Assembly (NCBI GenBank): GCA_050309685.1
Contig: JBNRMP010000015.1
Coordinates: 1-15,232 of the forward strand
Source of the DNA: Anaerohalosphaeraceae bacterium
GTDB lineage: Bacteria; Planctomycetota; Phycisphaerae; Sedimentisphaerales; Anaerohalosphaeraceae
Length of the DNA: 15,232 nt
Direction: 5' to 3'
Made by a program: the position numbers and the translations under genes. Within the stretch, counting starts at the first letter, position 1. Every line of letters starts with the position of its first letter. Below the pieces are notes generated by a model. The model made no database searches, was not told the DNA's origin, and saw only the letters and a program-made list of their open reading frames with translations. Positions 1 to 15,150 of the stretch are shown one piece after another.

Positions 1-3000
1 CGTATCGTCTGGGAAGATCTGACCGACCATCTCAAGACGTTGTCCAGTGGAACGCAAATTGTCAAAGAGCTCGGCCGGCTGCTCATCGCCGCATAAAAAC
101 TATGAAAAAAGTCAGTCAAGTTGAGAAGCTTACCTGTTTTGTTTTTACTGAAGCTGTTTTCATTGAAGCGGTAGAGGGAAACTTCATATTGTTTGAACAA
201 TTCATTCGGATCTTCTCCGGCAAAAGATACCGTGGCCTGGGCAAAATCGATAGTAAACGTGCCCAGGTCCATATTTTGCCCGTCGGGAAAGTTGAACCTC
301 CCCAGTTCCACCCATCGTTCATGACCCTTCAAACCGGCAATTTCGAAAAAGAGGTATCGTGAGCCGGTCGGGATTCCACGGAAAACAAAACGGCCCGTTT
401 CATCGGTCCTTGCATAGGCCGTAAAGGCGGTTTCCCAGTTGCTCGGACTGCCCTTGATAAGCAGGTTGAGCTTGGGGACCGGTTGATTGTCCCGCAGAAT
501 CTTTCCTGTGACGGATGAAAGGCCGCCGAAATCCAGGCTCACGGCCCGATCCTTTTGCGGCAGAATTGATGTTGTTACCACGCCCAGTTTGTTGTCCGGG
601 TCTTCACGATAGCCGTAGCATAGGATTGGTGGCATCTTTTCAATCCAATAGTAGCCGCGGTGGTCGGTGATCACCTTTGCCAATCGGGCTCGCCCCTGCT
701 TCCAATAACTGTAGTCGCTTTCATCAAGAAAATAAAGCGGAGTATCGGGAAGGGGTAATCCGTTCTCATCATAGACGAATCCTTCAATTATGCCGCCTTT
801 GGAGAGGACGACCTGCACCTGCCTGAGGGCATTTCCCTCTGTGGTGATCTGCCGGGTCAGGAGGGCATAATCGGCGTGCTCAAACACGAGCCAGTGCCCT
901 GAAGAATCCTGCTGAAGATCGTTCAGAGTGAACCGACCCTCGGCGTCTGTAATGGCCGCCGGGCGGGAATCGCCCGGTTCATAGCGGAACCGGACCTTGA
1001 CCTCTGGTACGGGCAGACCCTCCTCATTCACAATCGTTCCCTCAATGATCCCATCGGCTTTTACCGGAGACATGGCAATCAGGGTCGGTTCATCGGCATC
1101 AGGCACCATTTCCGGGCTTGGGGTGTAAAAGTACCCTTCCGCTGTCAGCTCCACCCGGCGGCTTTCAGTTCCATACACTTCACAGGTAAATTCTCCCTGC
1201 GGATCTTCATAGGCGATCTGATTGACGGTGAACTTCTCAATGGGCAGATTCGTTTCCCTGTCGATTACCTTTCCCCTTAACACGGTTTGCTTTCTGGTTG
1301 GAATTTGCAAAACCAAGTTGTCCTGGGGAATCTCAATATTTTGAAATTTCATTTTGATCGGTTCACGATCGATCTCAAACGTATAAAGACCCGGCACCAT
1401 GTTCTTAATTTCAAATTCGGTTTTACCCTTTTCCACGTGAACATCATTACGGTTTCCATCGGCGCTGACAGCCCATATCCAAAATCCCGTAGGCGGGGGG
1501 GATCCCATGTATTGAATCGTTACTTTCTGGGTAACTCGCTGTGAGGGAGAAGCGTAAGGAATTGTGATCGCAATCAACCCTGAATCGGGCGGCAACGGTT
1601 CAAATGTGGACCAGATCCCGCTGAAACCAGTCTCCATAGGAACAAAGATTTCCAGTTTGTACTCGCCGGGCAGAATGTTTTTCAGTTCAAAGTAACCCTC
1701 CTGATCAATCGAAGAATGGGGGACACAATAAACGCTGTGCCACCAGGCAGGTTCAGGAGCGATTTTCCATCCGCCAGCGGGCAGGCCGTCTTCGCAAACC
1801 GCCCGGCCAAAAACAGAGATGCCCGGCTGAAGGATGAAACGAAGCTTCTTTTCCTGAAAATGCCTGTCGAATTTGATTTTCTGAAAGGCGGGCGCATATC
1901 CGTTGCCTGTTACGGTAACCTGATATTCTTCGGGTTTGAGCCCGCCGATGAACGCTTTTCCTTTCTCATTGGTTCGCACATCTCGTTTTGGGCCGCGGCC
2001 CACAATATCGGAAACGTACGCCGCATAGACTGAAAATTCCTTGAGGGGCTGGTTGTACTCGTTGACCACTTCCGCTCGGATCTTGCAGCCCTTTTGGAAT
2101 TGATAATGTCGGAAGGTCTGGGTATCCTTTTTCAACTGAATGGTTTCATTCGTATATCTCCATCTTTCAGGGGTAATATAAACAGGGGATTCAAATTCAA
2201 TTATGTAATCTCCATCCGCCTTAATATTCGCGAACCAGTACATTCCGTTTGGATCTGTTTTAGTATGTTGATAGTCATCATTGGGAGAGCAACTTATAGA
2301 GATCTCCAAATCGGCAATTGGCTCGAGTGTATTGACATCGGTGATGAGGCCGCTCAGGACGCCTCGGGGGGTGAACTGGTAGGGCTCAGGGGCAACGGTG
2401 GGTTGTATAGCGGGCTCCTTGAGCTTTGCGGGCGGCTGGGGTTTTGTTTGTTCTTCCACGGCCGCGATGGTTTTCAACTTTGCTTCGTTGATGATCGGAT
2501 CGACGGGCGCTTCCTGCGCTGGCACGGCAGCCGGCTGGGGCTGGGCGGTTGATTGTGGGCTTGCCGCATCCGTCAGGACCGCCTGCACCGGGGGAAGCGA
2601 CGCCGGTTCGGGGTGACTGAGATAGAACAGCAGGCCGGATGTGCCTAGGATCACGGCCGCAGCCGCGGCGGCAATCTTGAGTCCCACAGCGGTCCCGACC
2701 GATGCCGGCGTGGTCCCTGCCGCTGCCCCGGCAAAACCGGCCGGGCCCGTAGTCGTCGCCTCGGCCACGGCGGCGCTGCCGATGGCGATGGAGCCGACGG
2801 CCAGCATGACGGCTTTTGTGAAGCCGGCGCCCGGTTTGGACTTCTGCAGTCCGCGTTCGACCATGGCCTCGACCTCGGCCCTGAGCATCTGGCGGCCGCG
2901 ATGCAGGCGAACGCGGATCGTGGCCTCCTTTTCATCGAGCAGGTCGGCAACCTGCCGAATGGAGCGGTCCTCGCGATAGAAGAGGACGAGGGGGTCGCGG

Positions 3001-3416
3001 TACATTTCGGGGATCCGCATGAGCGCCTGGCTGATCATCGCTTCTTCCTCCCTGGAGATCAGAATTTCGGACGGCCCCGGCTGAGGGCAGGCAGAACCGG
3101 GGAGATCGTTGAGTCTGTCGGTGCAGGCGAGGGGTTCTCTCTTTTTTCGGCGATGATGATTAAGGATGACGCTGCGGGTGATGCTGCACAGCCACGACTT
3201 GAAGCGGGCGGCGTCCTGGAGCTGCGCCAAGCTGCTCCACGCCCGCACGAAGGCCTCCTGGGCCAGCTCCTCGCTGAGGTCGAGGCGGCCGACGGCGCTG
3301 TAGGTGAGGGAACAGACGAGGGATTTGTAGCGGCCCACCAGCCGCTCGAAGGCGCGGGGGTCGCCCCGGAGGCAGGCGGCGATCAAATCCGCCTCTGTGT
3401 GTCCGTTATCTCTCAT
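1..3416 (-). CDS. Partial CDS (C-terminus lies beyond the window start). It is a single-polypeptide ECF sigma-70 factor fused to a hydrophobic transmembrane segment, a Pro/Gln-rich linker, and at least eight CarboxypepD_reg-like (prealbumin-fold) beta-sandwich repeats.
   Basis: Hand translation of minus-strand frame 2 from the ATG at 3414-3416 to position 1 gives about 1138 codons with no stop. The frame was checked at anchor positions 5, 128, 848, 1508 and 2648. No frame-2 minus-strand ORFs appear in the provided track, which fits an ORF that leaves the window. GGAGG lies 6 nt upstream of the ATG. Residues 1-190 show ECF region 2 (...AFERLVGRYKSLVCSLTYSAV...AQEAFVRAWSSLAQL...FKSWLCSITRSVILNHHRRKKRE) and region 4 (...LVLFYREDRSIRQVADLLDEKEATIRVRLHRGRQMLR). 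About 60 hydrophobic residues follow (AVMLAVGSIAIGSAAV...LKIAAAAAAVILGTSGLLFYL). After that come repeated motifs of the form TDxxGxYxF and GRFxFxxIPxGxY, for example TDPNGMYWFANIKADGDY, TDAEGRFTLNDL and RTDETGRFVFRGIPTGSRY. Confidence 0.8.
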   Translation of the reverse strand, partial: MRDNGHTEADLIAACLRGDPRAFERLVGRYKSLVCSLTYSAVGRLDLSEELAQEAFVRAWSSLAQLQDAARFKSWLCSITRSVILNHHRRKKREPLACTDRLNDLPGSACPQPGPSEILISREEEAMISQALMRIPEMYRDPLVLFYREDRSIRQVADLLDEKEATIRVRLHRGRQMLRAEVEAMVERGLQKSKPGAGFTKAVMLAVGSIAIGSAAVAEATTTGPAGFAGAAAGTTPASVGTAVGLKIAAAAAAVILGTSGLLFYLSHPEPASLPPVQAVLTDAASPQSTAQPQPAAVPAQEAPVDPIINEAKLKTIAAVEEQTKPQPPAKLKEPAIQPTVAPEPYQFTPRGVLSGLITDVNTLEPIADLEISISCSPNDDYQHTKTDPNGMYWFANIKADGDYIIEFESPVYITPERWRYTNETIQLKKDTQTFRHYQFQKGCKIRAEVVNEYNQPLKEFSVYAAYVSDIVGRGPKRDVRTNEKGKAFIGGLKPEEYQVTVTGNGYAPAFQKIKFDRHFQEKKLRFILQPGISVFGRAVCEDGLPAGGWKIAPEPAWWHSVYCVPHSSIDQEGYFELKNILPGEYKLEIFVPMETGFSGIWSTFEPLPPDSGLIAITIPYASPSQRVTQKVTIQYMGSPPPTGFWIWAVSADGNRNDVHVEKGKTEFEIKNMVPGLYTFEIDREPIKMKFQNIEIPQDNLVLQIPTRKQTVLRGKVIDRETNLPIEKFTVNQIAYEDPQGEFTCEVYGTESRRVELTAEGYFYTPSPEMVPDADEPTLIAMSPVKADGIIEGTIVNEEGLPVPEVKVRFRYEPGDSRPAAITDAEGRFTLNDLQQDSSGHWLVFEHADYALLTRQITTEGNALRQVQVVLSKGGIIEGFVYDENGLPLPDTPLYFLDESDYSYWKQGRARLAKVITDHRGYYWIEKMPPILCYGYREDPDNKLGVVTTSILPQKDRAVSLDFGGLSSVTGKILRDNQPVPKLNLLIKGSPSNWETAFTAYARTDETGRFVFRGIPTGSRYLFFEIAGLKGHERWVELGRFNFPDGQNMDLGTFTIDFAQATVSFAGEDPNELFKQYEVSLYRFNENSFSKNKTGKLLNLTDFFHSFYAAMSSRPSSLTICVPLDNVLRWSVRSSQTI

Positions 3417-3423
3417 ATCGGGC

Positions 3424-3439
3424 CTCCTTTCGCATTATA
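3424..3439 (-). promoter_or_regulatory. Shine-Dalgarno GGAGG plus a perfect TATAAT hexamer immediately upstream of the sigma-fusion gene.
   Basis: The minus strand reads ...CCGAAGTATAATGCGAAAGGAGGCCCGATATG. GGAGG is plus 3424-3428 and TATAAT is plus 3434-3439. The -10 box sits only about 18 nt from the ATG, so any leader would be very short. No convincing -35 or ECF-type GGAAC/CGTC pair was found. Confidence 0.3.
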
Positions 3440-3593
3440 CTTCGGAATATGAGAAACCGACAGGGGAGAAAGGTTACAAGGGAGGGAAAAATTTTTGGCG
3501 AAAAGCGGGCTGGAAGGAGCCGTCGGCTTGCGTTGCAAACGCGCTGCCGCACGGTTTGCGATTTAAATAGGCGGCTGTCCCTGTTTTTATACC

Positions 3594-6500
3594 CTACGGT
3601 TTCTTCTTTTTGGCGGCGGGTTTGTCCGGGACGTCGGCGGGAAGGGCCGGCGTTTTGCCGGGCTCGAGCGGCGAGGCGTCGTAGCGCTCCTTGAGGGCGT
3701 TGATGAGCCGCTCGTAGCCGGCGATCATCTCCTCAAAGCGGGCGATGAGCATCCGGCAGTACTCCTTGCGGTCGGCATCGGAGCGGCGGACGGGGGTGAG
3801 CCACATCTCCATGGTCCTGAACTGCTCCTCCATGACGGAGGAGAGCGTGTGGAGGTTCTGCTGCTGAAGGGCGGAGCGGATCTGCTGCTCGGAATCGGTC
3901 TGAAAGCGGATGCTCTCGATCACCTGGTTCATGCGGTCGAGGATTTCGCGGCCGATGGTTTGGACGGGATCGTCGGCTTTCGGGGTTGCCGCCGTTTTGA
4001 GGCCGTCGGCGAGCGCATCCTTGATGGATTCGAGGCCCGCGTTCATGCCGTTGAGCTGGCGGATCAGCTTGCCGATACGGTCCTCGTCGTCGGCGCCGAG
4101 GAGCTTGTTGCGGGCGAAGGTCTTCTTGATGTCGGCCCAGCGCTGCGCCTCGGTCTCGCTCAGGCGGCCGGTGAGCTCGCGGAACTTGAGCAGGCTGGCC
4201 TCCGCGCCGCTCGCGAGGGTCTGGGCGTCCTGTTCGTAGTTGGAGAAGATCAGCGTCCAGAGCTCGCGCTCGTTCATAACCGGCAGGACGCCGGCGGCGA
4301 TGCGGTTCATGTTGCGATACGACCCCTGGAGCAGGAAGGGCGGCTCGGTGCGGTACTCATCGGCCTGGGCGGCGGAGAGGATGTACTGCCGATTGACTTT
4401 CAGCACGACCTCGCGGACGACGAAAAGCTTCTTCATGACGGCGACATATTCTTCGAGCTCGTCGGCCCCGTAGGCGCCCTCGAAATCGATGCCGTCCTTT
4501 TGGCCGGTCTCGGCGAGTTTCATGACGGCATAGACGTCGGCCTGGCTGCGGCGGGCGAGCGATTCGAGGACGGGATTGGAGGTCAGGGCGTTCTCGATGT
4601 AGCTGCTCATGAACGCGTCGTAGTTGTCGCCGACGATGTCGCCGATGTTATAGATGTCGGCGCGGTTGCTGAGCATGTCGGGGATCTTGAACTTTTCGCC
4701 GCTTTCGGTATAGGGGTTGCCGGCCATGACGACGCAGACGCGCTTGCCGCGGAGGTCGTAGGTGCGCGGGCGGCCCTCGTGGATGCCCTCGATTTTGCGC
4801 TGGGCGTCGCACAGCGAGATGAACTTCTGGAGGAACTCGGGGCTCGTGTGCTGGATGTCGTCGATATAGATCATCACGTTGTCGCCCATCTCGAAGGAAA
4901 GGTTGAGCTTTTGGATTTCCTCGCGGGCGGCGGCGTTGGGGGCCTCGGCGGGATCGAGCGAGATGACCCGGCGGCCCAGCGCCGGGCCGTTGATCTTGAC
5001 GAAGGTGAGCCCCAGCCGGTTGGCGACGTACTCCATGAGCGTCGTCTTGCCGTAGCCCGGCGGCGAGATCAGCAGCAGCAGGCCCTGGCGGTCGGTGCGC
5101 TTGGTCTCATCGGCCGTGCCGATCTGTTTGGCGAGGTTGGCGCCGATGAGGGGCAGGTAAACCGTGTCGATGAGCTTATTGCGGACGAAAGTGCTCATGA
5201 CGCGCGGCTGGAACTGGTCGAGGCGGTAGCGCTGGGCGAACTCGTCGATACGCCGCTTCTTGCAGTCGCGGAAGGCGACGAAGCGAGGAACGACGTGCTT
5301 TTCGTGGTGCGTGAGGCGATGGATAAAATTGCAGAGGTTCAGCGTGTACGTGCCCTTCGCGATTGTCGGGTGATCGCTCCGGAGGCCGTCCAGGCGGCGC
5401 TCGACCGACTGTCGGACGATGCGGCGGTCGGCGGCGGGCTCCATGAGGGCGACGGCGGCCTCATGGATGACGCCGGGGTCGGGGTCGAGACCCTCTTTAT
5501 TCTGGTACGAGTGCAGGGCCGCGCAGAGCAGGTCGAAGGCGCCGGCGGGGTCGTCGGCGAGGGCGTCGAGCGAGGTCTGAAGCTGTTTTTCGAAGCCGTT
5601 TTGCGCGAGATGGGCGCGGAAGGAATGGGCCAGGTCGGCGGCGGGGCCGCTGAGAATGAAGGAGTCGCCGAGGGCAAGCTCCTCGAAGAGATATTCGGCG
5701 GCGAACTCGAGTTGGCCGTCAAGCAGGCGGCCGGATTGCCTGGCGAAGACCTCCAGCGGTCCCATGAGCTGGGCCGGGAAGTCCTCGCGGCCGCGGTCGG
5801 CGTCAAAGAGAGTGCGAACAACGCCGGCGCCGCGGATGCGGGCGGCAAGCCGCCCCTTGTCCTGGAGCGGGCAGAACCAGTTCCAGAACAGCCGGGCCGC
5901 CGCGCGAACCTGCGGCGCAAAGCGGAGCAGGTCGATGACGTCGTAGAGATCGCAGAGGGCGTCGAGCAGCCGGACGGCATCGGCGTCGTGGACGCCCTTG
6001 ATGTAGCCCTCCTCGAAACGCGGCCCCATGAAGGTCTGCACGGCGGCGAGCTTGGCTTCGGGGCTCTGCCGCAGCCAGGCGGGACCGCGGACGGCGAACT
6101 GTTCGCGAATGGGTTTGAACATCTGCCAGGCAAGATACTCCGCGCGGCTGACGGCGGGGCTTTCGGAAGGCCGTTCGAGGTTCCACAGGTCGGCAGCGCT
6201 GACGATCTCCTCGTCCTCCAGCGGCTGGAAGAGGCCCGTGCCCGCGAGATGGTAAAACATCCGCCCCTCACGGCAGACGACAGCGCCTTCGAGGGCCTGG
6301 CGGTTGACGGAGAAGCGGTAACTGCCGAGGCGGATGATGCTCTCGCCGTCCTCGTAGAGGGCTTGCCTGTCCTTGAGCTGGCGAACGGCGTCCTGCCGGA
6401 GCGTTTTCAGGCGGCCCTTGACGTCCTCGGCCTTGACCGAGTCGCCCAGGTCGGTCAGTTGGGCAATCGTCTCGCGAATGCGCTCGACCATGCGGTCGGC

Positions 6501-8897
6501 GGAGAAAAAGCCGTTGATCTCATCGACGGTTTTCAGGGCGCGGACGCGGGTCTCGATGCCCTTGAGGATTCGCTCGGCGGCGGTCATCAGGGCGGCGGCC
6601 TTCTGGTTCTGCCGCTCAACGAGGGCGATCTTGCGGGACTCGAAGGCGTTGTAGATCTCCTCGCGCTTGTCGGCAAGGCGGACGATGAACTCGTCGAAAT
6701 CGGCAAAGCGGCCCTCGAGCGTTTCGATCTGGAGTGCGGACTTGGTCAGATACTCCTCGCACTTGGCGGGGCTGTCGCACAGATCGAGGAAGCTGATGAC
6801 GGACTGTTCGAGGAGCTTGAGCTGGGAGGCGAATTCGGCCTGCCCCTCCTCGCGGGCAAGGTCCTTCGTGCGGCCGGTGACGGCGGCCTTGGAGCGGTTG
6901 ACAAGGGCGTAGACCCTCGAGATGTTCTCGACGATGGCGGCGGTCTGCACGGCGTCTTCGATCTTCAGGTTGCTGACGACGTCGGCGAGCAGCTCCAGTT
7001 CGCCGGCGGTCCGGGCGATCTGCTCCAGACGCTCTTTGCACTCGGTAACCTTCTTCAGGTTTTCGACGGCGTCGCCGAGGGCGGCCGCCTTGACCTCGTA
7101 GGGCCGCAGGGCATCGTCGCGCAGGAGAAACTCCACGCACCCGGCGGAGAGCGTGTCGGTGTGTTCGGCGGTTTGCGTTTCGAGGGCGTCGATCTGCTCC
7201 AGGTCAGCGTAGCGCAGGTCACGGAGGGAGATGATGCGGCCGCGAAGGGTCCGCAGCTCCGCCAGGCGGCTGACGTACTGGCTGACCTCGGTGAGCGAGT
7301 GATAGTTGATGGCGGCGATGCTCTTTCGGACCTCGTCCCGAACCTCGGCAATCTGCCGGCGGGTGTTTTCGCGGGTGCGGACGACCTTTTCGTATTCCTC
7401 CATGGCCGCGGCGGCCGCCTTACGGATCTCCTCCAGCTCAGCGGCGAGGTTGTGCGTCTCCTCCTCGCCGATCCAGAAGTAGGAGTCGCGGATGTCCTGG
7501 GCCTTCCGGGAGATATCGAGGTAGAGATTCAGGTAGGAGTCCTCTTTGTCGATGAGCCGGAGCAGTTCGGTGCACTCGGCCATGCAGCGGACGATGCTCT
7601 TGTTGCCGATCTTGTAGAGCGGCGAGTCGCTCCTGGCCTCAACGACATGGTCGGGGTGGCAGAAGGGCGTCTTCCAGACCTGGATGACATGGTGCTTCTG
7701 GGCCTGCCCGTCGGCGCGGAAACAGATGAACGTGCCGTCCGCGAACGAGCAGAAGCCGTTGCAGACCAGCGGAACGGCCATCTCCATCCGGATGATGTTG
7801 TAAAAGAGCAGGACGTAAACGCCCGAATCCCGGTTGTAGAAGATGTAGAAAAAGTCCTCGCCGTTGGGCGAGTCGAGCCGCTTCTCGAAGACCATCTGCT
7901 CCATGTCGGTCTCGAACTGCTTGAGCTGGCCCGACTGGAGGTAGTAGCCCTTGGGAAAGACCAGGCCGTGGCCCTCGGGCAAAAGGACGCAGGCGTCGCG
8001 GATCGAATCGATACGGACGGCCGTCTGCGTTTTTTCATTGTAGAGAATGTAGCGAAACGCCGTCTCCTGGTAGGGTCGGATCTTGAGGAGGATCAGGTTG
8101 GCGATGATCGAGTAGTAGATCTCGGCGTCGCTGAGCGTCTGGTCGGGGTCGTCCACGGGCTCGGCGTAGATGCCTTCGCCGGTCTCGGTGTTGTCCTCGA
8201 TCTTGATGGTCAGGTCGCCGCCGACGGTCTCGACGAAGACGCGGTCTTCGATGGAGATGTGGGGGTGAAGGCCGCTGCGGTGCATGTCCTGCGTGACGCG
8301 GGTCCACTCGAACTGGTGCTGCGGGGGAAAGCAAAACTCGTGGTCGCTGCGGTTGTCGAGGTATTCGAGCTTATTGCCCCGGATGAGCCACTTGAAGGTT
8401 TTGATGTCGTCGATGTTCTTGCCCGTGCGAAAGATCATGAACAGGTGACTGCCGAGCACGGCGAACTTGGCGAAGCGGGTGTGGCGGTAAAACCGGTAGA
8501 GGTTGAAGAAGTCGCCGCGAAACCGCTCATCGTCGATCAGGTCGAGCGGGCAGGGCCGAAAGGCGCCGTCCTCAAACCGGTAAATCGCGAAGACGTCGGC
8601 GGGGGCCGTCTCATTGCGCAGGCCGACGAAGACGTTGTAGCCGAAGATGAAGTGGTTACCGACGGCGATGATGTCGCGGGGAACGCAGTTGTTCTCGGTG
8701 GAGATGCGTTCGCTGGCGAGGAGCCGGTTTTCCACCGCGCCGAAGACCGCCTTGCGGTCGGCGTTGAGCGATTCGAGTTTGCCCCGAAGGGCGTCGGCAT
8801 GGGCGTTGAGCCGCTTGCGGATGACCTCATAGGTCCCGCCCTCAAGCACAACCGGCTCGGCGGAGGCGCCGGGTTTTGACTGATCCTGTCGTTCCAT
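3594..8897 (-). CDS. Giant 1767-aa multidomain protein. It has about 450 aa of N-terminal beta-rich sequence, about 500 aa of coiled coil, a helical region, one AAA+ ATPase module of the MoxR/AAA_5 (dynein-related) type, a C-terminal helical region, and a poly-Lys tail. Its function is unknown.
   Basis: Complete ORF from ATG (8895-8897) to TAG (3594-3596). Walker A LLLLISPPGYGKTTL is at plus 5037-5069, about aa 1277. Walker B VMIYIDDIQH is at plus 4848-4880, about aa 1343. A sensor-1-like RVCVVMAGNPYTESGEKFKIP segment follows. Residues ~480-950 are heptad-like and rich in E, R, K, A and L. The protein ends ...PAAKKKKP. Codon usage is rich in GC at third positions, like the neighbouring genes. 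The antisense 1676-aa frame is low complexity and carries no motifs. Confidence 0.9.
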   Translation of the reverse strand: MERQDQSKPGASAEPVVLEGGTYEVIRKRLNAHADALRGKLESLNADRKAVFGAVENRLLASERISTENNCVPRDIIAVGNHFIFGYNVFVGLRNETAPADVFAIYRFEDGAFRPCPLDLIDDERFRGDFFNLYRFYRHTRFAKFAVLGSHLFMIFRTGKNIDDIKTFKWLIRGNKLEYLDNRSDHEFCFPPQHQFEWTRVTQDMHRSGLHPHISIEDRVFVETVGGDLTIKIEDNTETGEGIYAEPVDDPDQTLSDAEIYYSIIANLILLKIRPYQETAFRYILYNEKTQTAVRIDSIRDACVLLPEGHGLVFPKGYYLQSGQLKQFETDMEQMVFEKRLDSPNGEDFFYIFYNRDSGVYVLLFYNIIRMEMAVPLVCNGFCSFADGTFICFRADGQAQKHHVIQVWKTPFCHPDHVVEARSDSPLYKIGNKSIVRCMAECTELLRLIDKEDSYLNLYLDISRKAQDIRDSYFWIGEEETHNLAAELEEIRKAAAAAMEEYEKVVRTRENTRRQIAEVRDEVRKSIAAINYHSLTEVSQYVSRLAELRTLRGRIISLRDLRYADLEQIDALETQTAEHTDTLSAGCVEFLLRDDALRPYEVKAAALGDAVENLKKVTECKERLEQIARTAGELELLADVVSNLKIEDAVQTAAIVENISRVYALVNRSKAAVTGRTKDLAREEGQAEFASQLKLLEQSVISFLDLCDSPAKCEEYLTKSALQIETLEGRFADFDEFIVRLADKREEIYNAFESRKIALVERQNQKAAALMTAAERILKGIETRVRALKTVDEINGFFSADRMVERIRETIAQLTDLGDSVKAEDVKGRLKTLRQDAVRQLKDRQALYEDGESIIRLGSYRFSVNRQALEGAVVCREGRMFYHLAGTGLFQPLEDEEIVSAADLWNLERPSESPAVSRAEYLAWQMFKPIREQFAVRGPAWLRQSPEAKLAAVQTFMGPRFEEGYIKGVHDADAVRLLDALCDLYDVIDLLRFAPQVRAAARLFWNWFCPLQDKGRLAARIRGAGVVRTLFDADRGREDFPAQLMGPLEVFARQSGRLLDGQLEFAAEYLFEELALGDSFILSGPAADLAHSFRAHLAQNGFEKQLQTSLDALADDPAGAFDLLCAALHSYQNKEGLDPDPGVIHEAAVALMEPAADRRIVRQSVERRLDGLRSDHPTIAKGTYTLNLCNFIHRLTHHEKHVVPRFVAFRDCKKRRIDEFAQRYRLDQFQPRVMSTFVRNKLIDTVYLPLIGANLAKQIGTADETKRTDRQGLLLLISPPGYGKTTLMEYVANRLGLTFVKINGPALGRRVISLDPAEAPNAAAREEIQKLNLSFEMGDNVMIYIDDIQHTSPEFLQKFISLCDAQRKIEGIHEGRPRTYDLRGKRVCVVMAGNPYTESGEKFKIPDMLSNRADIYNIGDIVGDNYDAFMSSYIENALTSNPVLESLARRSQADVYAVMKLAETGQKDGIDFEGAYGADELEEYVAVMKKLFVVREVVLKVNRQYILSAAQADEYRTEPPFLLQGSYRNMNRIAAGVLPVMNERELWTLIFSNYEQDAQTLASGAEASLLKFRELTGRLSETEAQRWADIKKTFARNKLLGADDEDRIGKLIRQLNGMNAGLESIKDALADGLKTAATPKADDPVQTIGREILDRMNQVIESIRFQTDSEQQIRSALQQQNLHTLSSVMEEQFRTMEMWLTPVRRSDADRKEYCRMLIARFEEMIAGYERLINALKERYDASPLEPGKTPALPADVPDKPAAKKKKP

Positions 8898-8910
8898 TAT
8901 CTCTCTGTGA

Positions 8911-8953
8911 TTTTTAAAAAAGGTGCCTGCCGGCAGGCGCGGCCGCCGGCAGG
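8911..8953 (-). terminator. Candidate intrinsic terminator or attenuator on the minus strand, between the flotillin stop codon and the start of the giant gene.
   Basis: A perfect 14-nt palindrome GCCTGCCGGCAGGC lies at 8925-8938. A second arm, GCCGCCGGCAGG (8942-8953), allows a 9-bp stem (CCUGCCGGC / GCCGGCAGG) in the minus-strand RNA. The hairpin is followed by ACC and UUUUUU (plus A-run 8916-8921). Immediately downstream the minus strand reads TAAAAAT, a -10-like element, then CACAGAGAGATA and ATG. Confidence 0.5.
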
Positions 8954-8960
8954 GGCGCGT

Positions 8961-10985
8961 TTATGCCTTCAGCGTTCGGGTGGTCGTATCCTCCAGCGTC
9001 AGGCCCAAACTCTCGGCGGGGTGATCCGCCAGGCCCAGGCCTTTGACCGTCTCAAGGAGGCGACCCAGCAGGTTATGATCCTTCTTGCTCGCCTTGCTCA
9101 TCAGCTTCATGACGAGGGCGGAGATCGTCAGGTTCTTCAAATCCTCGCTGGTCATGCCGAACTGGGAGACGAACTGGCGAATCTTCGCCTTGGTCTCCTC
9201 GTGGCCGCCGTCGAAGAACGTCTGCTTGACATCGGTGAGAATGCGGCTGTTATCGATCATCCGGTCCACGCTCTTGCCGGTGGTGATGGAGTTGACCAGC
9301 CGGTTGAAGAACTCCCCGTCGCCGCCGACGATGTCGATCTTCGCGGACTTGAGCGCCTCGGCGAGAATGAGGGCCTGCTGCTCGGCGATATCCTTCTGGA
9401 TGCCGATCCGGGCCAGCTCGATGTCCTTTTCCTTGTTGAGCTCGAGCTTGAATTCCTCGTGTTCCTTGCCGACGGCGTCGAAGATCTTCATGGCCTCGGC
9501 CTTCTCGCGGATACCCTCGGCCTCGGCATTGAACTTGCGCGACATAACGGTCGCTTCGGCCGTGCCCTGCTTCTCGACGGCCAGGGCCTTGGCCTCCATG
9601 ACCTCCGCTTCGGCCATGCCGGCGACGGCGTGCTCCTTGACCTGGGCGGCGGCAATCGTCTTCTTGGCCTCGGCGTTCTTCTTCGACGCATCCAGGTTGG
9701 CCTGAGCCTCGATCAGCGCCTGCTCGGCGTAGAATTCGGCCGACTTCTTCGACGCCTCGGCGGCCTTGATGTCTTTGACGAGGGCCTGCTCGGCCTGCTC
9801 CTCAGCTCGGATGATCGCGACCTTCTTCTGGCGGTCAGCCCCGGCAAACTCGCGCGTATCCTTGATCCGCTCTTCCTCGGCCACGACGGTCTTTTCGACC
9901 ATGATGCGCTCGCGGATGTTGTTTTGCAGTTCCTTGCGTTTCTCTTCGACGGCCTTGTCCTTCTCGACCTGGGCGATGGTGACGAAACGCTCGCGCTCGG
10001 TGGCCTCAAGCTGACGGTCGCGGGCGACGCGCTCCTGCTCGACGCCGTCGGTCCGCTCCTTGTTGCGGGCGGCGACGATGATCTGACGCTGCTTGTTCTC
10101 CTCGGCGACCTGGATCTCCTCCTCGGCGGCGATGCGGGCCTTCTCGGCCTTCTCGCGTTCGGCCGCCTGGATCTTCTTCGTCTCGGCCTCCTCGCGGGCC
10201 TGGACAGAGGCGACCTCCCGCTTCTGCTTGGCCTCGGCCTCGGCGAGCTGACGGTTGAGTTCGAGGATGGCCTCCTGTGCCTCGACGTTCTGCTGGGTGA
10301 TCGTCTTGTCCTTTTCGCGCTCGCGGGCGTTGGCAAGCTCAAACTGCTCGGCCGTCAGGACGGTGATCTTCTTGATGCCCTCGGCGTCGAGGATGTTGTC
10401 CGGGTTGAGCAGCTTCTTTTCGGTCTGTTCGAGGTAGTCGATGGCGGCGTCCTCGAGGACGTAGCCGTTGAGGTCGGTGCCGATGACCTGGAGAATCTCC
10501 TCCTTGAACTCCACGCGGGAGGTATAGAGCTGGGCGAAATCGAACCGCTTGCCGACGGTCTTGAGGGCCTCGGAGAACTTGGCGTCGAACAGCGTGTACA
10601 GCGCCTGCTCGTCCGACGCCCGCTTGCACCCCAGCGCCTGGGCGACCTTCTTGACGTCCTCCGCCGTATTATTCACCCGCACGAAGAACGCCACCACGAT
10701 GTCCGCCCGCAGGTTGTCCTTGCAGATGAGCCCCTGGGCCCCCCGGCGGTCGATCTCGATCCGCTTGACCGAGATATCCATGTACTCGATGCGGTGGATG
10801 ATCGGCAGGACGATCATGCCCGAGAAGCTGACCCTCGTGCCTCCCATGCCGTTGCGGATCAGCGCCTCGCCCTGCGACACCTTGCGGTAGAAGGACGAGA
10901 TAAACGCCAGGATCAGCAGCGGAAGAACAATAATCAGAATAAACAGAATTCCTGCAATCGCTGCGCCGGGTACTGCTGCTAACAT
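8961..10985 (-). CDS. Flotillin-family SPFH (band-7) protein of the YqiK/FloT type. It has an N-terminal transmembrane helix, an SPFH domain, and a long coiled coil rich in Glu, Ala and Lys.
   Basis: 674 aa. The N-terminus AAVPGAAIAGILFILIIVLPLLILAFISSFY is hydrophobic. The SPFH signature is GEALIRNGMGGTRVSFSGMIVLPIIHRIEYMDISVKRIEI...CKDNLRADIVVAFFVRV...LNPDNILDAEGIKKIT, the same pattern as in E. coli YqiK. About 320 aa of E/A/K/R-rich coiled coil follow (AEAEAKQKREVASVQAREEAETKKIQAAEREKAEKARIAAEEE...). The start ATG (10983-10985) lies 3 nt after the NfeD stop, and a GGAGAC RBS sits inside the NfeD 3' end. Confidence 0.92.
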   Translation of the reverse strand: MLAAVPGAAIAGILFILIIVLPLLILAFISSFYRKVSQGEALIRNGMGGTRVSFSGMIVLPIIHRIEYMDISVKRIEIDRRGAQGLICKDNLRADIVVAFFVRVNNTAEDVKKVAQALGCKRASDEQALYTLFDAKFSEALKTVGKRFDFAQLYTSRVEFKEEILQVIGTDLNGYVLEDAAIDYLEQTEKKLLNPDNILDAEGIKKITVLTAEQFELANAREREKDKTITQQNVEAQEAILELNRQLAEAEAKQKREVASVQAREEAETKKIQAAEREKAEKARIAAEEEIQVAEENKQRQIIVAARNKERTDGVEQERVARDRQLEATERERFVTIAQVEKDKAVEEKRKELQNNIRERIMVEKTVVAEEERIKDTREFAGADRQKKVAIIRAEEQAEQALVKDIKAAEASKKSAEFYAEQALIEAQANLDASKKNAEAKKTIAAAQVKEHAVAGMAEAEVMEAKALAVEKQGTAEATVMSRKFNAEAEGIREKAEAMKIFDAVGKEHEEFKLELNKEKDIELARIGIQKDIAEQQALILAEALKSAKIDIVGGDGEFFNRLVNSITTGKSVDRMIDNSRILTDVKQTFFDGGHEETKAKIRQFVSQFGMTSEDLKNLTISALVMKLMSKASKKDHNLLGRLLETVKGLGLADHPAESLGLTLEDTTTRTLKA

Positions 10986-10988
10986 AAT

Positions 10989-11669
10989 TTAGGTCTCCAT
11001 ATTCAGGGGGGCGATCAGATAGACTCCGCGGGCATCATCCCGGCCGACGATCACGGCTTCATCCCCTTTATGAAAGACGCGGTCGTCGGCGGACATTACG
11101 TTTAACAGGATGGGCGAGCCGTTGGTGGTAATTTCGGCCTGGCCCAGTTTCTTCGATACTTTGGTGGTCGTGACCCGGCAAACCTGCCCGATGAGGGGGC
11201 GGGACGCCTCGATGCTGCCGTCGAGGCCGGTAAACACCCGGGTGATGGGAATGATGACGATTTTGGTGATGCCGCAGGCGATCATAAAGGCGGGCAGGGC
11301 AATCACAAAGGCCAGCGGCAGGGAGTTGTTCGGATTGAAATAATAGTTGCCCAGCACGGCCAGCAGCCAGAGATTCAAAAAGAGAACGCTCAGGACGATC
11401 ATGAACGGAACCCGGCCGAGCGAGAAAAATTCGGCCGCGGCCCGAAACAGCCCCGAAACCCCGGCGCCGTCCGCACCGACATCGATATCCGCGTCCACAT
11501 CCACATCCCCGTCGAGATCGATGCCGACATCGCCGTCCAGGTCCAGGTCAAAGGTATTGAGATCGAGAAGCCCCAGGAGCACGGTGAGCCAGTAGAGCAT
11601 CATCAGAAGCAGCATCAGGGTGAAAAAGAGGTTCACCGGCTCGAAGGCATAGTGGATCAGTTCGACCAT
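10989..11669 (-). CDS. NfeD-like (YqiJ-like) membrane protein. It has N-terminal transmembrane helices, an Asp-rich DxD repeat loop, further transmembrane helices, and a C-terminal OB-fold NfeD domain.
   Basis: 226 aa. The N-terminus is hydrophobic (FFTLMLLLMMLYWLTVLLGLL). An acidic stretch follows: DLNTFDLDLDGDVGIDLDGDVDVDADIDVGADGAG. More transmembrane sequence follows (FMIVLSVLFLNLWLLAVL...AFVIALPAFMIACGITKIVIIPI). The C-terminal beta-rich tail is GQVCRVTTTKVSKKLGQAEITTNGSPILLNVMSADDRVFHKGDEAVIVGRDDARGVYLIAP. AGGAGG lies 8 nt upstream of the ATG. Gene order and stop-start coupling to the flotillin mirror the E. coli yqiJ-yqiK operon. Confidence 0.85.
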   Translation of the reverse strand: MVELIHYAFEPVNLFFTLMLLLMMLYWLTVLLGLLDLNTFDLDLDGDVGIDLDGDVDVDADIDVGADGAGVSGLFRAAAEFFSLGRVPFMIVLSVLFLNLWLLAVLGNYYFNPNNSLPLAFVIALPAFMIACGITKIVIIPITRVFTGLDGSIEASRPLIGQVCRVTTTKVSKKLGQAEITTNGSPILLNVMSADDRVFHKGDEAVIVGRDDARGVYLIAPLNMET

Positions 11670-11801
11670 GGCCGATCCTCCTTGCGACGGAAACTGAGCC
11701 GAATGTCCGGGCTGCGTTTCAAGAGTTCTCCTTTTTCTCCGGGATTGCCTGCATTACCGCTCCTGTTTGTCGTTTGACCTGAGGCAGGGAATCCGCCCGG
11801 C

Positions 11802-11830
11802 AACCTACCCGCTCGACCGCGTTTTGTCAA
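11802..11830 (-). promoter_or_regulatory. Candidate sigma-70 promoter for the nfeD-flotillin operon, with a leader of about 125 nt.
   Basis: The minus strand reads TTGACA (plus 11825-11830), a 17-nt spacer AAACGCGGTCGAGCGGG, then TAGGTT (plus 11802-11807). The -10 hexamer matches the T1, A2 and T6 positions of the consensus. The site lies in the 303-bp gap between the yjbQ stop and the nfeD start. Confidence 0.35.
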
Positions 11831-11972
11831 CAAATTTTCTCGTTTATCCGACTCCATATTCCGGCTCTCTCACCCCTATAGAAAGGCCGGCGAGTCTTTT
11901 TGTTACACTGAACTTTGTGCAAAATCGTTATTTTGTTTTTTGAGTAATTCTCTCACTGATCCTGCGGTTTTT

Positions 11973-12389
11973 TTACTCCGGGTCGGGGCAGAAGTGGAGG
12001 AGGCATCGGCGGGAGCGGGGGCCGTCGAACTCGCAGAAGTAGATGCCCTGCCAGGTCCCCAAAACGAGGCGGCTGTCCTCGATGAGGACCTGTCGGGTGC
12101 AGCCGAACAGCGAGGACTTGACATGGGCGTCGGAATTGCCCTCGCTGTGGCGATAGCCGGGGGCGCCCTGGGGGATGAGCTTATTCAGGGCCAGGAGGAT
12201 GTCATGGATCACATCGGGGTCGGCGTTTTCATTGATGGTGACGGCCGCCGTGGTGTGGGGGATGTGGATGGTGACGACCCCGTTGCGAACGCCGGACTCT
12301 CCCAGGGCGGTCCGGATCGAGTCGGTGATGTCGATCATCTCCTCGCGGCGACGAGTGGATACGGTCAGCGTCTTGCGATGTACCTTCAT
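11973..12389 (-). CDS. yjbQ: YjbQ/UPF0047 family protein (annotated in databases as a secondary thiamine-phosphate synthase).
   Basis: 138 aa. It shows the family hallmarks MKVHRKTLTVSTRRREEMIDITD...GVVTIHIPHTTAAVTINENADPDV...HSEGNSDAHVKSSLFG...LGTWQGIYFCEFDGPR. A strong RBS, AAGGAG, lies 5 nt upstream of the ATG at 12387-12389. Confidence 0.9.
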   Translation of the reverse strand: MKVHRKTLTVSTRRREEMIDITDSIRTALGESGVRNGVVTIHIPHTTAAVTINENADPDVIHDILLALNKLIPQGAPGYRHSEGNSDAHVKSSLFGCTRQVLIEDSRLVLGTWQGIYFCEFDGPRSRRCLLHFCPDPE

Positions 12390-12455
12390 TTTGTCTCCTT
12401 TTTCTCCGAATTATTGTTTGTCCCTTATTGTAGCGAAAAGGGGGAGAAAGGAAAT

Positions 12456-12545
12456 ATGCTTGAATGCTTGGAACTGTGTTTTTTCGATGGAATGATTAAG
12501 GATATTCCGGATATGGGGGATTTGGGCAAATATGTTACAGGTTAA
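12456..12545 (+). other. Speculative small ORF of 29 codons in the divergent intergenic region. It could be a leader or precursor peptide, or a chance frame.
   Basis: GGGGGAGAAAGG lies 5-6 nt upstream of the ATG at 12456. The peptide is MLECLELCFFDGMIKDIPDMGDLGKYVTG. Its codons end in A/T, unlike the GC3-rich host genes. It lies 57 nt upstream of the diiron-protein gene. Confidence 0.2.
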
Positions 12546-12601
12546 TTTTTGAAAGTAGAGAAAGGATCGTCAACAACTCAGATTATTGGGAAGGAGCAAT
12601 T

Positions 12602-13825
12602 ATGGGCTTTGATCCGTTAAAAGAAAAGGGCATCCCCCTGGAAAATCAGTTTCGAAACTGGAGCGAGCTGGACATCCGGCCGTACAACAAAAAGGATGTC
12701 CACCCGTACACCCGTACCCGCATCATCCTGATGAACGGCATCGAGGTCGAGGGGGCGCTGTTCAAGCACCAGTTTGCCCGGCACTCGGACAATATGGAGC
12801 TCAAGCAGGAGTTGGCCGCCACTCGCCGGATTGAGCAGCAGCAGCAGAAAATGATCAACTGGTTCTCGCCGGGCGATGAATCGCCGCTGGAGACGACAAT
12901 CGGCTACGAACAGGTGGCGGTGGACCTGACGGCCTGGCTGGCGCGGACCGAACCCGACCCGCTGGTCAAGGATGCGCTGGATTTCGCCCTGATCGAGGAT
13001 TTCGACCACCTGTACCGGTATGCGAATCTGCTGGAGATGACCGAGGGTAAGCAGGCCCAGTCCATCACTCGCGACCTGACGGAGATCATGCCGGGGCGAC
13101 CGACCGAACGGGAGCATCGCCACCCGTTCGATTCGCCGATCGGGCATGTCAGCCTGCCCGTCGCCGACATCCTGACGCTCATGCATATCCAGACAATCGT
13201 CTCCGCCGAGCAGCAGACGATGAATTACTACATGAACGTGGGCAATCAGTTGGGCACGATGGCAGGGCGGGGGCTCTACCAGGAGATCGCAATGATCGAG
13301 GAACAGCACGTTACCCACTACGAGTCGCTGATGGACCCGAACGCGACCTGGTTTGAGCGGTGTCTGCTGCATGAGTACAACGAGTGCTACATGTATTATT
13401 CCTGCATGCAGTCGGAGGAGGACCCCCGGATCAAACGGTTCTGGCAGGAATGCCTCGACCAGGAGATCACCCATCTGCACATGGCGGCGGCCAATCTCAA
13501 GCGGTACGAGGACAAGGACCCGCGGCAGTTCCTGCCGGAGGAGTTTCCGACGCTGACGGTCTTCCAGTCCAACAAGAACTACATCCGCGATGTGCTGGCG
13601 ACGCAGATCGATCTGACCAAGGCCGACCTGGAATACAAGCCGGTGGACGATCTGCCGCGCGATCACCGGTACTTCAAATTCCAGCGAATCGTCAACGAGG
13701 GCGGCGTGCCCAGTCACCAGGTGATCGAACAGAATATCCGGAAGGCCGGTCGGGACTATCGTCTTGAGACGCAGGGAGAGCACCCGGTTGAGCGTTACCG
13801 CAGCCGCAAGACCGTCGAAGTGTAA
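12602..13825 (+). CDS. Ferritin-like diiron-carboxylate superfamily protein, a putative oxygenase, oxidase or hydroxylase of unknown specificity.
   Basis: 407 aa. AAGGAG lies 6 nt upstream of the ATG. The C-terminal half carries two canonical E...ExxH sets: SAEQQTMNYYM...IEEQHVTHYESL and LHEYNECYMYY...DQEITHLHMAA. The N-terminal half carries a degenerate set: GYEQVAVD...IEDFDHLYRY. The antisense 467-aa frame is low complexity. Confidence 0.8.
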   Translation: MGFDPLKEKGIPLENQFRNWSELDIRPYNKKDVHPYTRTRIILMNGIEVEGALFKHQFARHSDNMELKQELAATRRIEQQQQKMINWFSPGDESPLETTIGYEQVAVDLTAWLARTEPDPLVKDALDFALIEDFDHLYRYANLLEMTEGKQAQSITRDLTEIMPGRPTEREHRHPFDSPIGHVSLPVADILTLMHIQTIVSAEQQTMNYYMNVGNQLGTMAGRGLYQEIAMIEEQHVTHYESLMDPNATWFERCLLHEYNECYMYYSCMQSEEDPRIKRFWQECLDQEITHLHMAAANLKRYEDKDPRQFLPEEFPTLTVFQSNKNYIRDVLATQIDLTKADLEYKPVDDLPRDHRYFKFQRIVNEGGVPSHQVIEQNIRKAGRDYRLETQGEHPVERYRSRKTVEV

Positions 13826-13851
13826 CCGATCGGCTGACAGCAAAGGGCGGC

Positions 13852-14163
13852 ATGCAACTATCCGTGCCGGCAAATTATGGGCTCGCCCGACTGCGGCTGC
13901 CGGCAAAGCCGGCCCGGATGCAGGGGATGATGGCCCCGATGAAGGAGCGGCCGATCCGGATCGACGCGGCGAAGATCCCGGCGGATTTTTTGGAGCGGAT
14001 CGAACGCGCCGGCTGCACACAGCGCGATTGCGCCGACTGCGGAATCTGCGGTCAGGTCGCCGGGGAGGCAGTAACGATTGACAAGGCGTTTCGCGATCAC
14101 GTGCCGGCGGGATATGGTGAAGCGGAAGAATCCATTTTGACGGGACGGCTCTGGGATGTTTAA
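13852..14163 (+). CDS. Small protein of up to 103 aa with a compact Cys knuckle (Cx4CxxCGxCG). It may bind metal (Zn or Fe).
   Basis: It contains the motif GCTQRDCADCGICGQ. Its stop codon TAA (14161-14163) overlaps the ATG (14156-14158) of the downstream methyltransferase (ATGTTTAAG), which indicates translational coupling. The start codon is uncertain. Alternative in-frame ATGs occur about 66-84 nt downstream of 13852. Confidence 0.55.
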   Translation: MQLSVPANYGLARLRLPAKPARMQGMMAPMKERPIRIDAAKIPADFLERIERAGCTQRDCADCGICGQVAGEAVTIDKAFRDHVPAGYGEAEESILTGRLWDV

Positions 14164-14884
14164 GTCACGCGCTACGGAAACGGAATGGCTGGACCGGCCC
14201 GACGGAGATGAGGACCTGGTTCGCCGCAGCCACTCCCTCATGCGGACGGTAAACCGCTGCTTCGGAGGGACGCGCCGGGTCCGCTGTTTTCTCCGCCGGC
14301 AGATTTCCCGCGGACGGCCCCATGAGGAGATTCGTCTGCTGGACATCGGCTCGGGAAGCTGCGATATCCCGATTGCCCTGGCGCTGTGGGCCCGGCGGGA
14401 GGAACTGGCCCTGCGGATAACCTGTGTGGAGCGAGACGCGAGGACGCTGGACGCAGGCCGGGCGGCGGTGGAAAAGACCGGGTGTCCCTCGATCCGGCTT
14501 GTCCATGGAGACATCTTCGTCTGGCAGCCGGAGGAGACGTTCGATGTTGCCGTCGGTTCGATGTTCTTCCATCACCTGACCGATCGGCAGATCGTGCGGC
14601 TGATCCGACGTCTGCGGTCCTTTGTCCGCCGGGGGGTGTTCATCAACGACCTGTGCCGGACCCCGATCACCTACGCGGGCGGGGTCCTGCTAACGGCGGC
14701 GGCTGACCGGGAGGTCCGCCGGGATGCGCTGCTGTCCATCCGCAAGGGATTCCTCCGGGAGGAACTGGTAACGCTGCTGAGCCGGATCGAGAACGCCTCG
14801 GTAAGCGTGGAGAATCACCATTTCGGGCGGATCACCGCCTGGGTCGAATTTCTGGCGGGAGGCATTGATGCGAACGAAAAGTAA
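14156..14884 (+). CDS. Class I SAM-dependent methyltransferase.
   Basis: 242 aa. Motif I is LLDIGSGSCDIPIALA. An acidic residue after beta-2 is present (ITCVERD). Motif II is VHGDIF...FDVAV. Motif III is GVFIND. The N-terminal ...EWLDRPDGDEDLVRRSHSLMRTVNRCFGG segment is typical of Rossmann-fold methyltransferases. Confidence 0.85.
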   Translation: MFKSRATETEWLDRPDGDEDLVRRSHSLMRTVNRCFGGTRRVRCFLRRQISRGRPHEEIRLLDIGSGSCDIPIALALWARREELALRITCVERDARTLDAGRAAVEKTGCPSIRLVHGDIFVWQPEETFDVAVGSMFFHHLTDRQIVRLIRRLRSFVRRGVFINDLCRTPITYAGGVLLTAAADREVRRDALLSIRKGFLREELVTLLSRIENASVSVENHHFGRITAWVEFLAGGIDANEK

Positions 14885-14885
14885 A

Positions 14886-15130: not shown

Positions 15131-15150
15131 TTTTATCCGTAAAAATACCT

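Follow-up and report, generated by a model that had tools for sequence, protein, structure and literature searches.

A DUF3686-family AAA+ ATPase encoded behind YqiJ-like and flotillin-like genes: a candidate for ATP-driven remodeling of a bacterial membrane scaffold

Introduction

What does a very large ATPase do when databases call it a DNA repair protein and its gene stands directly behind those of two membrane proteins? The question is raised by a 15,232-nucleotide stretch of an Anaerohalosphaeraceae bacterium (Planctomycetota, class Phycisphaerae, order Sedimentisphaerales; GenBank assembly GCA_050309685.1, contig JBNRMP010000015.1, positions 1 to 15,232), called the window throughout, whose minus strand encodes a 1767-amino-acid (aa) AAA+ ATPase of the Pfam family DUF3686. 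An original prediction, made from this DNA and its open reading frames (ORFs) without database searches, had described the protein as a beta-rich head, a long coiled-coil stalk, one MoxR/AAA_5-like ATPase module and a poly-lysine tail. What it had observed holds with corrections to the coiled coil, its interpretation is partly supported, and the decisive evidence, a gene row with YqiJ-like and flotillin-like proteins, was absent from it.

In the current view, bacterial flotillins and PspA/Vipp1 function with no ATPase dedicated to them. The flotillin-NfeD system of S. aureus (FloA-NfeD) is an ATP-independent holdase for unfolded proteins (PMC11222466), bacterial ESCRT-III systems lack a Vps4-type ATPase (PMC7619361), and reviews describe the recycling route of PspA polymers as unknown (PMC11237479, PMC7619361). 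The first two of these observations make it attractive to propose, and we hold the balance to be about even, that the role of the DUF3686 ATPase is the ATP-driven remodeling of a flotillin/YqiJ membrane scaffold. A large AAA+ protein that is almost always encoded after flotillin and YqiJ in hundreds of species is an obvious candidate for scaffold disassembly, and one that is directly testable in cultured Bacteroidota.

Family membership and conserved gene order

The ORF at 3594-8897 is a real gene. Its product matches Pfam DUF3686 (E = 4.5e-182; 606 bits, gathering cut-off 25; alignment of aa 37-474 to model positions 2-448 of 448), and homologs number more than 5,300 (more than 5,312 in a word-indexed search), spread over no fewer than seven phyla. 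A second match, to DUF7902, covers aa 595-678 (E = 3.6e-22, 78.8 bits, cut-off 26), and weak matches to the Pfam families AAA, AAA_22 and AAA_5 were also obtained. Other metagenome contigs encode an identical protein (P0001), while the nearest genome-derived relatives are about 60% identical and come from Phycisphaerae (Sedimentisphaerales, Anaerohalosphaeraceae); the best genome-derived matches are named 'DNA repair ATPase' or 'MoxR-like ATPase' in their sources. An exhaustive search with aa 1-1000 yielded 1,288 representatives of 50%-identity clusters, and the full-length architecture (approximately 1600-1900 aa) is retained in homologs as low as 28% identity. In a scan of one genome per species, the patterns SPPGYGKTT and MAGNPYTE recovered at least 585 DUF3686-type loci, distributed among Planctomycetota, Bacteroidota, Verrucomicrobiota, Desulfobacterota, Kiritimatiellota, Clostridia and Fibrobacterota. 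Four motifs characteristic of the family, SPPGYGKTT, DDIQH, MAGNPYTE and QGSYR, form invariant columns and occur in the window protein, within a single C-terminal AAA+ module.

The minus-strand genes of the window follow one another in the order YjbQ, YqiJ-like, flotillin-like, ATPase and an ECF-sigma fusion gene that is cut off by the left end of the window. To place this row in a wider context, ORFs were called in 80 loci of other species taken from the species-genome scan and were searched with the window proteins, and synteny was counted over the 63 loci in which 3.5 kb or more of sequence precedes the ATPase gene. A flotillin-like gene lies directly upstream of the ATPase gene, on the same strand, in 60 of the 63, and a YqiJ-like gene is also present ahead of the flotillin-like gene in 56 of the 63. 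PspA/IM30 genes, detected by iterated search, stand beside the row in 22 of the 80 loci. The linkage to flotillin is thus near-obligate and the linkage to PspA facultative.

The identity of the flotillin-like partner needs some care, since the protein itself has no match in Pfam, NCBIfam or PADLOC, Pfam Band_7 matches one of 20 of its homologs, and a profile of these homologs found QmcA only, and weakly, among Protein Data Bank (PDB) entries. We assign it to the SPFH proteins because of its names in the sources and because, over residues 8-189, it shares 46% identity (E = 3e-52) with a protein of 184 aa from the Planctomycetota locus L003 that matches Pfam Band_7. It consists of one N-terminal transmembrane helix, an SPFH-like domain, a long helical region rich in E, A and K, and a C-terminal domain that is conserved. 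As in YqiK and FloA, the SPFH domain would be expected on the cytoplasmic side.

Where PspA genes do occur, their position varies with the lineage: they lie upstream of the YqiJ-like gene in Bacteroidota and directly downstream of the ATPase gene in Phycisphaerae. Two complete Planctomycetota genomes (L003 and L004) display the order PspA-PspA-YqiJ-Band_7-flotillin-ATPase-PspA, in which the Band_7 gene is an extra short paralog (184-190 aa; transmembrane segment plus Band_7; L003 5331-5885, L004 5229-5801) inserted between the YqiJ-like and the long flotillin-like genes. The window operon has neither this short paralog nor the PspA genes of L003 and L004. In Agaribacterium, a pair of genes for a CesT/Tir-like DUF2170 protein (YjfI) and PspA stands beside the row.

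These PspA genes suggest another explanation, in which the ATPase is an analog of Vps4 whose main substrate is the polymer of PspA/IM30, the bacterial ESCRT-III protein, and flotillin merely recruits it to the membrane. Such a role would fit the 22 loci with adjoining PspA genes, the three copies each in L003 and L004, one of them directly behind the ATPase gene, the Agaribacterium pair, and the gap described in the reviews cited above, namely the lack of Vps4 in bacteria and an unknown mode of PspA recycling. We nevertheless consider it unlikely that PspA is the principal substrate, as about three quarters of the loci, the window included, have no PspA gene within approximately 10 kb, in contrast with the 60 of 63 that have the flotillin-like gene; furthermore, the protein has no MIT domain, and the Pfam model of the classic AAA type aligns over just the first 73 of its 131 positions.

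Structure of the AAA+ module

The catalytic part of the protein agrees closely with what had been read from the sequence. The Walker A motif ISPPGYGKTTL lies exactly where it had been placed, and every string quoted in the original prediction occurs once in the protein. The Walker B motif IYIDDIQH was also recognized correctly, with a range (4848-4880) that spans the longer NVMIYIDDIQH. Its distance from Walker A, estimated at about 60 residues, is 63 from the Walker A lysine to D1346, with both motifs C-terminal to the helical region, and the sensor-1-like GNPY segment is present (Table 1). The alpha/beta core is highly conserved, with 79% majority identity across the family and with K1284 of the GKT sequence, D1346, D1347, the sensor-1 residue N1394 and R1412 invariant. 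In the helical lid the invariant residues are R1516, P1519, F1521, Q1524, G1525, S1526, Y1527 and R1528; the Q-G-S-Y-R motif formed by the last five (aa 1524-1528) includes R1528, a candidate sensor 2. The Walker B motif has DD in 224 of 227 full-length homologs, a departure from the canonical hhhhDE of MoxR proteins.

To which group of AAA+ proteins does this module belong? Pfam AAA_5 matches weakly (26.9 bits, cut-off 22; model positions 2-127 of 139) and is found in 16 of 16 family members (best E = 3.4e-9), as is the classic AAA model, with a similar score on a shorter alignment. Searches of PDB sequences with the whole protein and with a profile of the AAA region gave alignments confined to the Walker A zone of p97, Rix7 and NVL, and a profile running from Walker B to the arginine finger found no significant match among PDB sequences. 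Sequence alone does not settle the AAA+ clade, since no PDB match extends beyond the Walker A zone and none was obtained for the second half of the core. The nearest solved structures to the model of the module are those of dynein, CbbQ, midasin and NorQ, which supports the predicted resemblance to the MoxR/dynein/midasin structural type. The label MoxR/AAA_5-like therefore stands as a structural likeness, through the AAA_5 match and these nearest structures. Strict membership in MoxR fails on the DD of Walker B and on the missing partner gene for a VWA-domain protein; in the Pfam annotation of loci L001-L004 and L086, no VWA family was found.

The loop that joins strand 2 to helix 2 bears on how such a module could act on its substrate. 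In a client-processing role, the ATPase would extract or unfold damaged membrane proteins or release them from a flotillin-NfeD holdase, much as ClpB works with small heat-shock proteins. The S. aureus FloA-NfeD system holds unfolded proteins without ATP (PMC11222466), and a linked ATPase would add a step of release or refolding. The loop comprises 18 residues (GPALGRRVISLDPAEAPN) that the model renders as coil and short helices with no evident hairpin, and it lacks the kind of aromatic pore-loop motif that serves for threading. CbbQ, NorQ, dynein and midasin, the relatives closest in structure, remodel folded partners and do not thread polypeptides, and no protease or co-chaperone gene is conserved in the loci examined. 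Taken together, these points make client processing improbable.

A role in defense, with a membrane SPFH effector and an NTPase sensor forming an anti-phage or conflict system, receives a few hints: a weak hit of the PADLOC model mad8 in the AAA region (E = 9e-5), weak STAND-type Pfam matches in a few members together with a DD Walker B as in STAND NTPases, and defense-like genes for AbiJ_NTD4 and a deaminase near the Agaribacterium locus. We set aside both the defense-system and the STAND readings as very unlikely, given that the flotillin-like and YqiJ-like proteins have no PADLOC match, that the locus has no conserved toxin or nuclease effector, and that the stable gene order and the high conservation of the AAA core across phyla are unlike fast-evolving defense islands.

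Hardly any credence is left for the DNA repair function that Pfam ('ATPase involved in DNA repair') and NCBI ('DNA repair ATPase') attach to the family, which has nothing beyond these inherited names in its favor and is opposed by the absence of any nuclease, helicase, DNA-binding, SMC, RecN or ABC domain in Pfam and NCBIfam searches, by Walker motifs 63 residues apart in one AAA+ fold and not split by a helical region as in the SMC/Rad50 type, by conserved neighbors that are membrane proteins and not repair genes, and by our finding no literature under the family name. The database name, without support here, misleads annotation. The same profile searches agree with the earlier view of a single AAA+ module and show no ABC or SMC P-loop, and the absence of any protease, nuclease or helicase domain fits the remodeling role that had been put forward in preference to a protease or helicase.

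N-terminal domains, rod and C-terminal tail

The approximately 1,270 residues that precede the ATPase were examined with two AlphaFold2 (AF2) models built from a 61-sequence alignment, one covering aa 1-1190 (predicted local distance difference test, pLDDT, 82.1; predicted TM-score, pTM, 0.49) and the other aa 850-1767 (pLDDT 82.9, pTM 0.71). Behind a conserved N-terminal helix, the models place a beta domain that resembles a divergent propeller, a likeness only, and no blade repeats were detected in it by profile-profile search. The three beta-strand-like blocks that had been quoted for this part are present (aa 220-235, 349-369 and 388-408), and the N-terminus is beta-rich as described. No transmembrane segment is found, the highest Kyte-Doolittle mean over 19 residues being 1.57, in line with the earlier reading, and the ATPase is a soluble, cytoplasmic protein.

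As a separate observation, the longest Foldseek alignments of the aa 1-1190 model are to the clathrin heavy chain, IFT-A and a nuclear-pore protein, in which a propeller is followed by a helical solenoid. The TM-scores to these membrane-coat proteins are only about 0.1, which indicates a resemblance in overall layout and gives no evidence of homology.

The helical region that follows is where the original prediction needs the most revision. It had described a long coiled coil over aa ~480-950 and a stalk on the scale of 70 nm; the heptad-like stretch that it quoted is there (aa 489-525), while the region extends over aa ~426-846, with beta structure at aa 854-892 and helices without flagged heptad-like segments at aa 918-1152. 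Our heptad score, a crude home-made measure and not COILS or DeepCoil, flags aa 477-531, 614-642, 723-827 and 1650-1679. The model divides aa 426-846 into 11 helices, the longest of no more than 58 residues, and the region gives spectrin-like matches. The spacing between the invariant residues W475 and D843 is 367-370 residues in 45 of 45 aligned relatives, down to 30% identity (standard deviation 0.6). Because there are essentially no insertions or deletions over 369 residues and the model splits the region into many helices, we infer a geometry in which it behaves as a precisely packed rod and not as a single long stalk. Since a spectrin repeat is about 5 nm long, a rod of three to four such repeats would span roughly 15-20 nm, not 70 nm.

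The rod leads into the small beta domain, which is conserved, and then into the middle domain, which is conserved poorly; between the middle domain and the ATPase, the model shows a few strands and a long helix.

At the other end of the protein, the length beyond aa 1586 ranges from 35 to 259 aa across the family. The AAKKKKP ending is as described, and the median net charge of the last 20 residues is +4 within the close Planctomycetota clade, where 51% reach +4 or higher, versus 0 elsewhere in the family, where 7% do so. The poly-lysine tail is a feature of this clade only, and a functional role of the tail across the family, as the earlier suggestion of a lipid- or nucleic acid-binding tail might imply, is not supported.

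Proposed mechanism and its standing

Under the proposal that the DUF3686 ATPase remodels the flotillin/YqiJ scaffold, its gene would be co-transcribed with the flotillin-like and YqiJ-like genes. The AAA+ modules would assemble into a ring, like those of CbbQ, NorQ and RavA, an arrangement that we infer because a conserved trans-acting arginine implies a ring. The propeller, carried on the rigid, fixed-length, spectrin-like rod, would dock onto the cytoplasmic flotillin/YqiJ assembly, and ATP turnover, passed on through the rod, would lead to the assembly, disassembly or recycling of the flotillin scaffold. Where PspA genes are co-encoded, PspA polymers might be recycled as well. The outcome would be an energy-dependent turnover for a membrane-maintenance system that is otherwise ATP-independent.

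Several observations weigh against this proposal. The DD of Walker B may denote slow hydrolysis or the role of a nucleotide switch. No PspA gene was found by PspA profile in any frame of the window, nor on the 18-kb contig L001; the window operon thus has the published 'abbreviated' form without PspA, which does not exclude membership in the family. The flotillin-like gene is missing in three of the 63 loci, the functional link to flotillin is read from gene order only, and we found no experimental work in the literature on any member of the DUF3686 family.

A more far-reaching version can be offered tentatively, at odds that we would place well short of even: the family would be a ring-forming ATPase of MoxR/dynein type that uses a propeller on a spectrin-like lever of fixed length to take apart or recycle cytoplasmic flotillin cages and, in loci that encode it, PspA (ESCRT-III) polymers, a functional, non-homologous counterpart of Vps4 and the missing energy source of bacterial membrane scaffolds. 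If this is true, the energy for bacterial membrane-scaffold systems would come from the DUF3686 family.

Other features of the window

The coordinates of the ATPase, its parts and the neighboring genes are compiled in Table 1.

Table 1. Features of the window, with positions numbered from its first nucleotide.
Feature	Position	Strand	Basis and remarks
DUF3686-family AAA+ ATPase gene	3594..8897	-	1767 aa, stop codon included; ORF list and translation
Conserved N-terminal helix, aa 20-52	8742..8840	-	AF2 helix 20-52; conserved R29, L37, L44, N45, R48
Divergent beta-propeller-like domain (predicted), aa 58-409	7671..8726	-	About 27 strands (AF2); core of Pfam DUF3686
Helical heptad-like region, aa 426-846	6360..7622	-	AF2 helices; resembles tandem spectrin repeats
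DUF7902, inside the helical region, aa 595-678	6864-7115	-	Pfam match
Small conserved beta domain, aa 854-892	6222..6338	-	AF2 strands; invariant G858, F862, V864, N865, H883, T887
Poorly conserved helical middle domain, aa 918-1152	5442..6146	-	AF2 helices; mean majority-residue fraction 0.37
AAA+ alpha/beta core, aa 1274-1419	4641..5078	-	
Walker A ISPPGYGKTTL, aa 1277-1287	5037-5069	-	
Walker B (DD) IYIDDIQH, aa 1343-1350	4848-4871	-	
Predicted pre-sensor-1 beta-hairpin, aa 1368-1381	4755-4796	-	Two AF2 strands (aa 1368-1373, aa 1376-1381) after Walker B and before strand 4
GNPY sensor 1	4710-4721	-	GNPY segment, aa 1389-1416
Candidate arginine finger R1412	4662-4664	-	Invariant; end of helix 4
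Helical lid / C-domain, aa 1420-1600	4098..4640	-	AF2 helices, pLDDT 80-96; 166-171 aa across the family
Clade-specific C-terminal extension	3597..4079	-	Helices of low confidence (aa 1607-1741), then a disordered basic tail (aa 1742-1767) with the ending AAKKKKP; pLDDT 34-67
GC-rich hairpin followed by T-run, in the 63-nt gap between flotillin-like and ATPase genes	8926..8953	-	11-bp stem, 9 GC pairs (CACCTTTTTT); terminator scan
Flotillin/YqiK-like protein gene, upstream of ATPase gene	8961..10985	-	674 aa; named by sources 'YqiK' / 'flotillin family protein'
YqiJ/YuaF (NfeD-like) membrane protein gene, first of the row	10989..11669	-	226 aa; three transmembrane segments; weak Pfam YqiJ_N, E = 0.011
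YjbQ/UPF0047 gene	11973-12389	-	
Gene for 407-aa protein	12602-13825	+	No Pfam match
Downstream gene, ECF-sigma fusion	1-3416	-	Runs off the left end

The hairpin in the gap between the flotillin-like and ATPase genes is strong and terminator-like, with a fold energy of -25.4 kcal/mol (z = -2.3). The contigs L001 and L002, otherwise identical to the window, both have a version shorter by 15 nt, and a stable hairpin is present in the same gap in many relatives (e.g. L003, L004, L020, L022, L058, L065, L072 and L081), with a U-run in a few of them. From its position and fold, the element may be an attenuator that sets a low ratio of ATPase to flotillin. Rfam and tRNA scans of the window found nothing.

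Two long plus-strand ORFs, 3849-8879 (1676 aa) and 8907-10982 (691 aa), were rejected as genes. They lie antisense to the ATPase and flotillin-like genes, respectively, and are artefacts, codon-aligned mirror frames kept free of stops by the near-absence of TTA, CTA and TCA codons (0, 0 and 1 in the 1768 codons; GC content at third codon positions, GC3, 0.88).

Further along the window, the 407-aa protein is encoded divergently to YjbQ/UPF0047, and its paired E..H motifs (e.g. EEQHVTHYESL and DQEITHLHM) suggest a ferritin-like di-iron protein. The gene downstream of the ATPase is whole in L001 (11474-15463), where it encodes 1329 aa: ECF sigma-70 regions 2 and 4 are joined to a C-terminal portion of great length that carries CarboxypepD_reg-like repeats, an architecture unusual for a sigma factor, and the GC content drops from about 0.65 to 0.50 within this gene.

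Outside the window, one relative of the ATPase departs from the common architecture. The 1040-aa protein P0309 (L085, 9001-12123) has DUF3686 and DUF7902 without the AAA module, and its gene stands alone among genes for secreted proteins, with no flotillin-like or YqiJ-like neighbor. It may be a truncated remnant or represent a separate, ATPase-less subfamily.

Relation to known systems

The window protein is a further member of a known family that had been described from sequence analysis alone. Ravi et al. 2024 (mSystems, PMC11237479) reported an operon with CesT/Tir-PspA, flotillin, a YqiJ/YuaF protein with three transmembrane segments and a 'Betapropeller+Coiled-coil+AAA-ATPase', noted that abbreviated operons without PspA are more widespread, and proposed roles in sub-membrane dynamics. 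The Pfam name does not appear in that paper; we take its ATPase to be DUF3686, probably correctly, from the agreement in architecture and operon and from Flavobacteriaceae loci whose gene order is the same. The three-part architecture and the order YqiJ-like, flotillin-like, ATPase are the same in the window, and nothing essential differs; the window copy has a longer C-terminal helical extension and the basic tail, like the rest of its Planctomycetota clade. Literature searches for DUF3686/PF12458, for 'DNA repair ATPase' with flotillin and for flotillin with MoxR returned nothing relevant. The idea of a flotillin-operon ATPase is therefore already published, and the window contributes a member and structural detail and not a new kind of system. 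What is added here are the structural neighbors of MoxR/dynein type, the invariant DD, the fixed-length spectrin-like rod, the contrast between flotillin synteny (60 of 63 loci) and PspA linkage (about a quarter of loci), and the clade-specific tail.

With MoxR proteins (CbbQ, NorQ, RavA) and the AAA_5 modules of dynein and midasin, the ATPase shares an AAA_5 match over nearly the whole length of the model and a predicted hairpin between Walker B and sensor 1. It differs from this group in the propeller, rod and helical domains before the ATPase, in having DD and not DE, and perhaps at helix 2, where the model shows no evident beta-hairpin; from MoxR proper, its loci differ by having no VWA partner gene.

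FtsH-HflK/C illustrates that SPFH assemblies can work with AAA+ machines, and the pairing of an SPFH membrane scaffold with an AAA+ ATPase is common to both systems. FtsH is a membrane-anchored protease of the classic AAA clade in a periplasmic cage, whereas the window ATPase is soluble, with no protease domain or transmembrane helix, and its flotillin-like partner, compared with HflK/C, has the one-transmembrane layout of the YqiK type.

From Vps4, finally, the window ATPase is separated by its lack of an MIT domain, by a different AAA+ structural group and by not showing the classic AAA fold with its second region of homology. What it shares with the Vps4-ESCRT-III system is the pairing of an AAA+ ATPase with a member of the ESCRT-III superfamily, here PspA, through a genetic link that exists in some of the loci.

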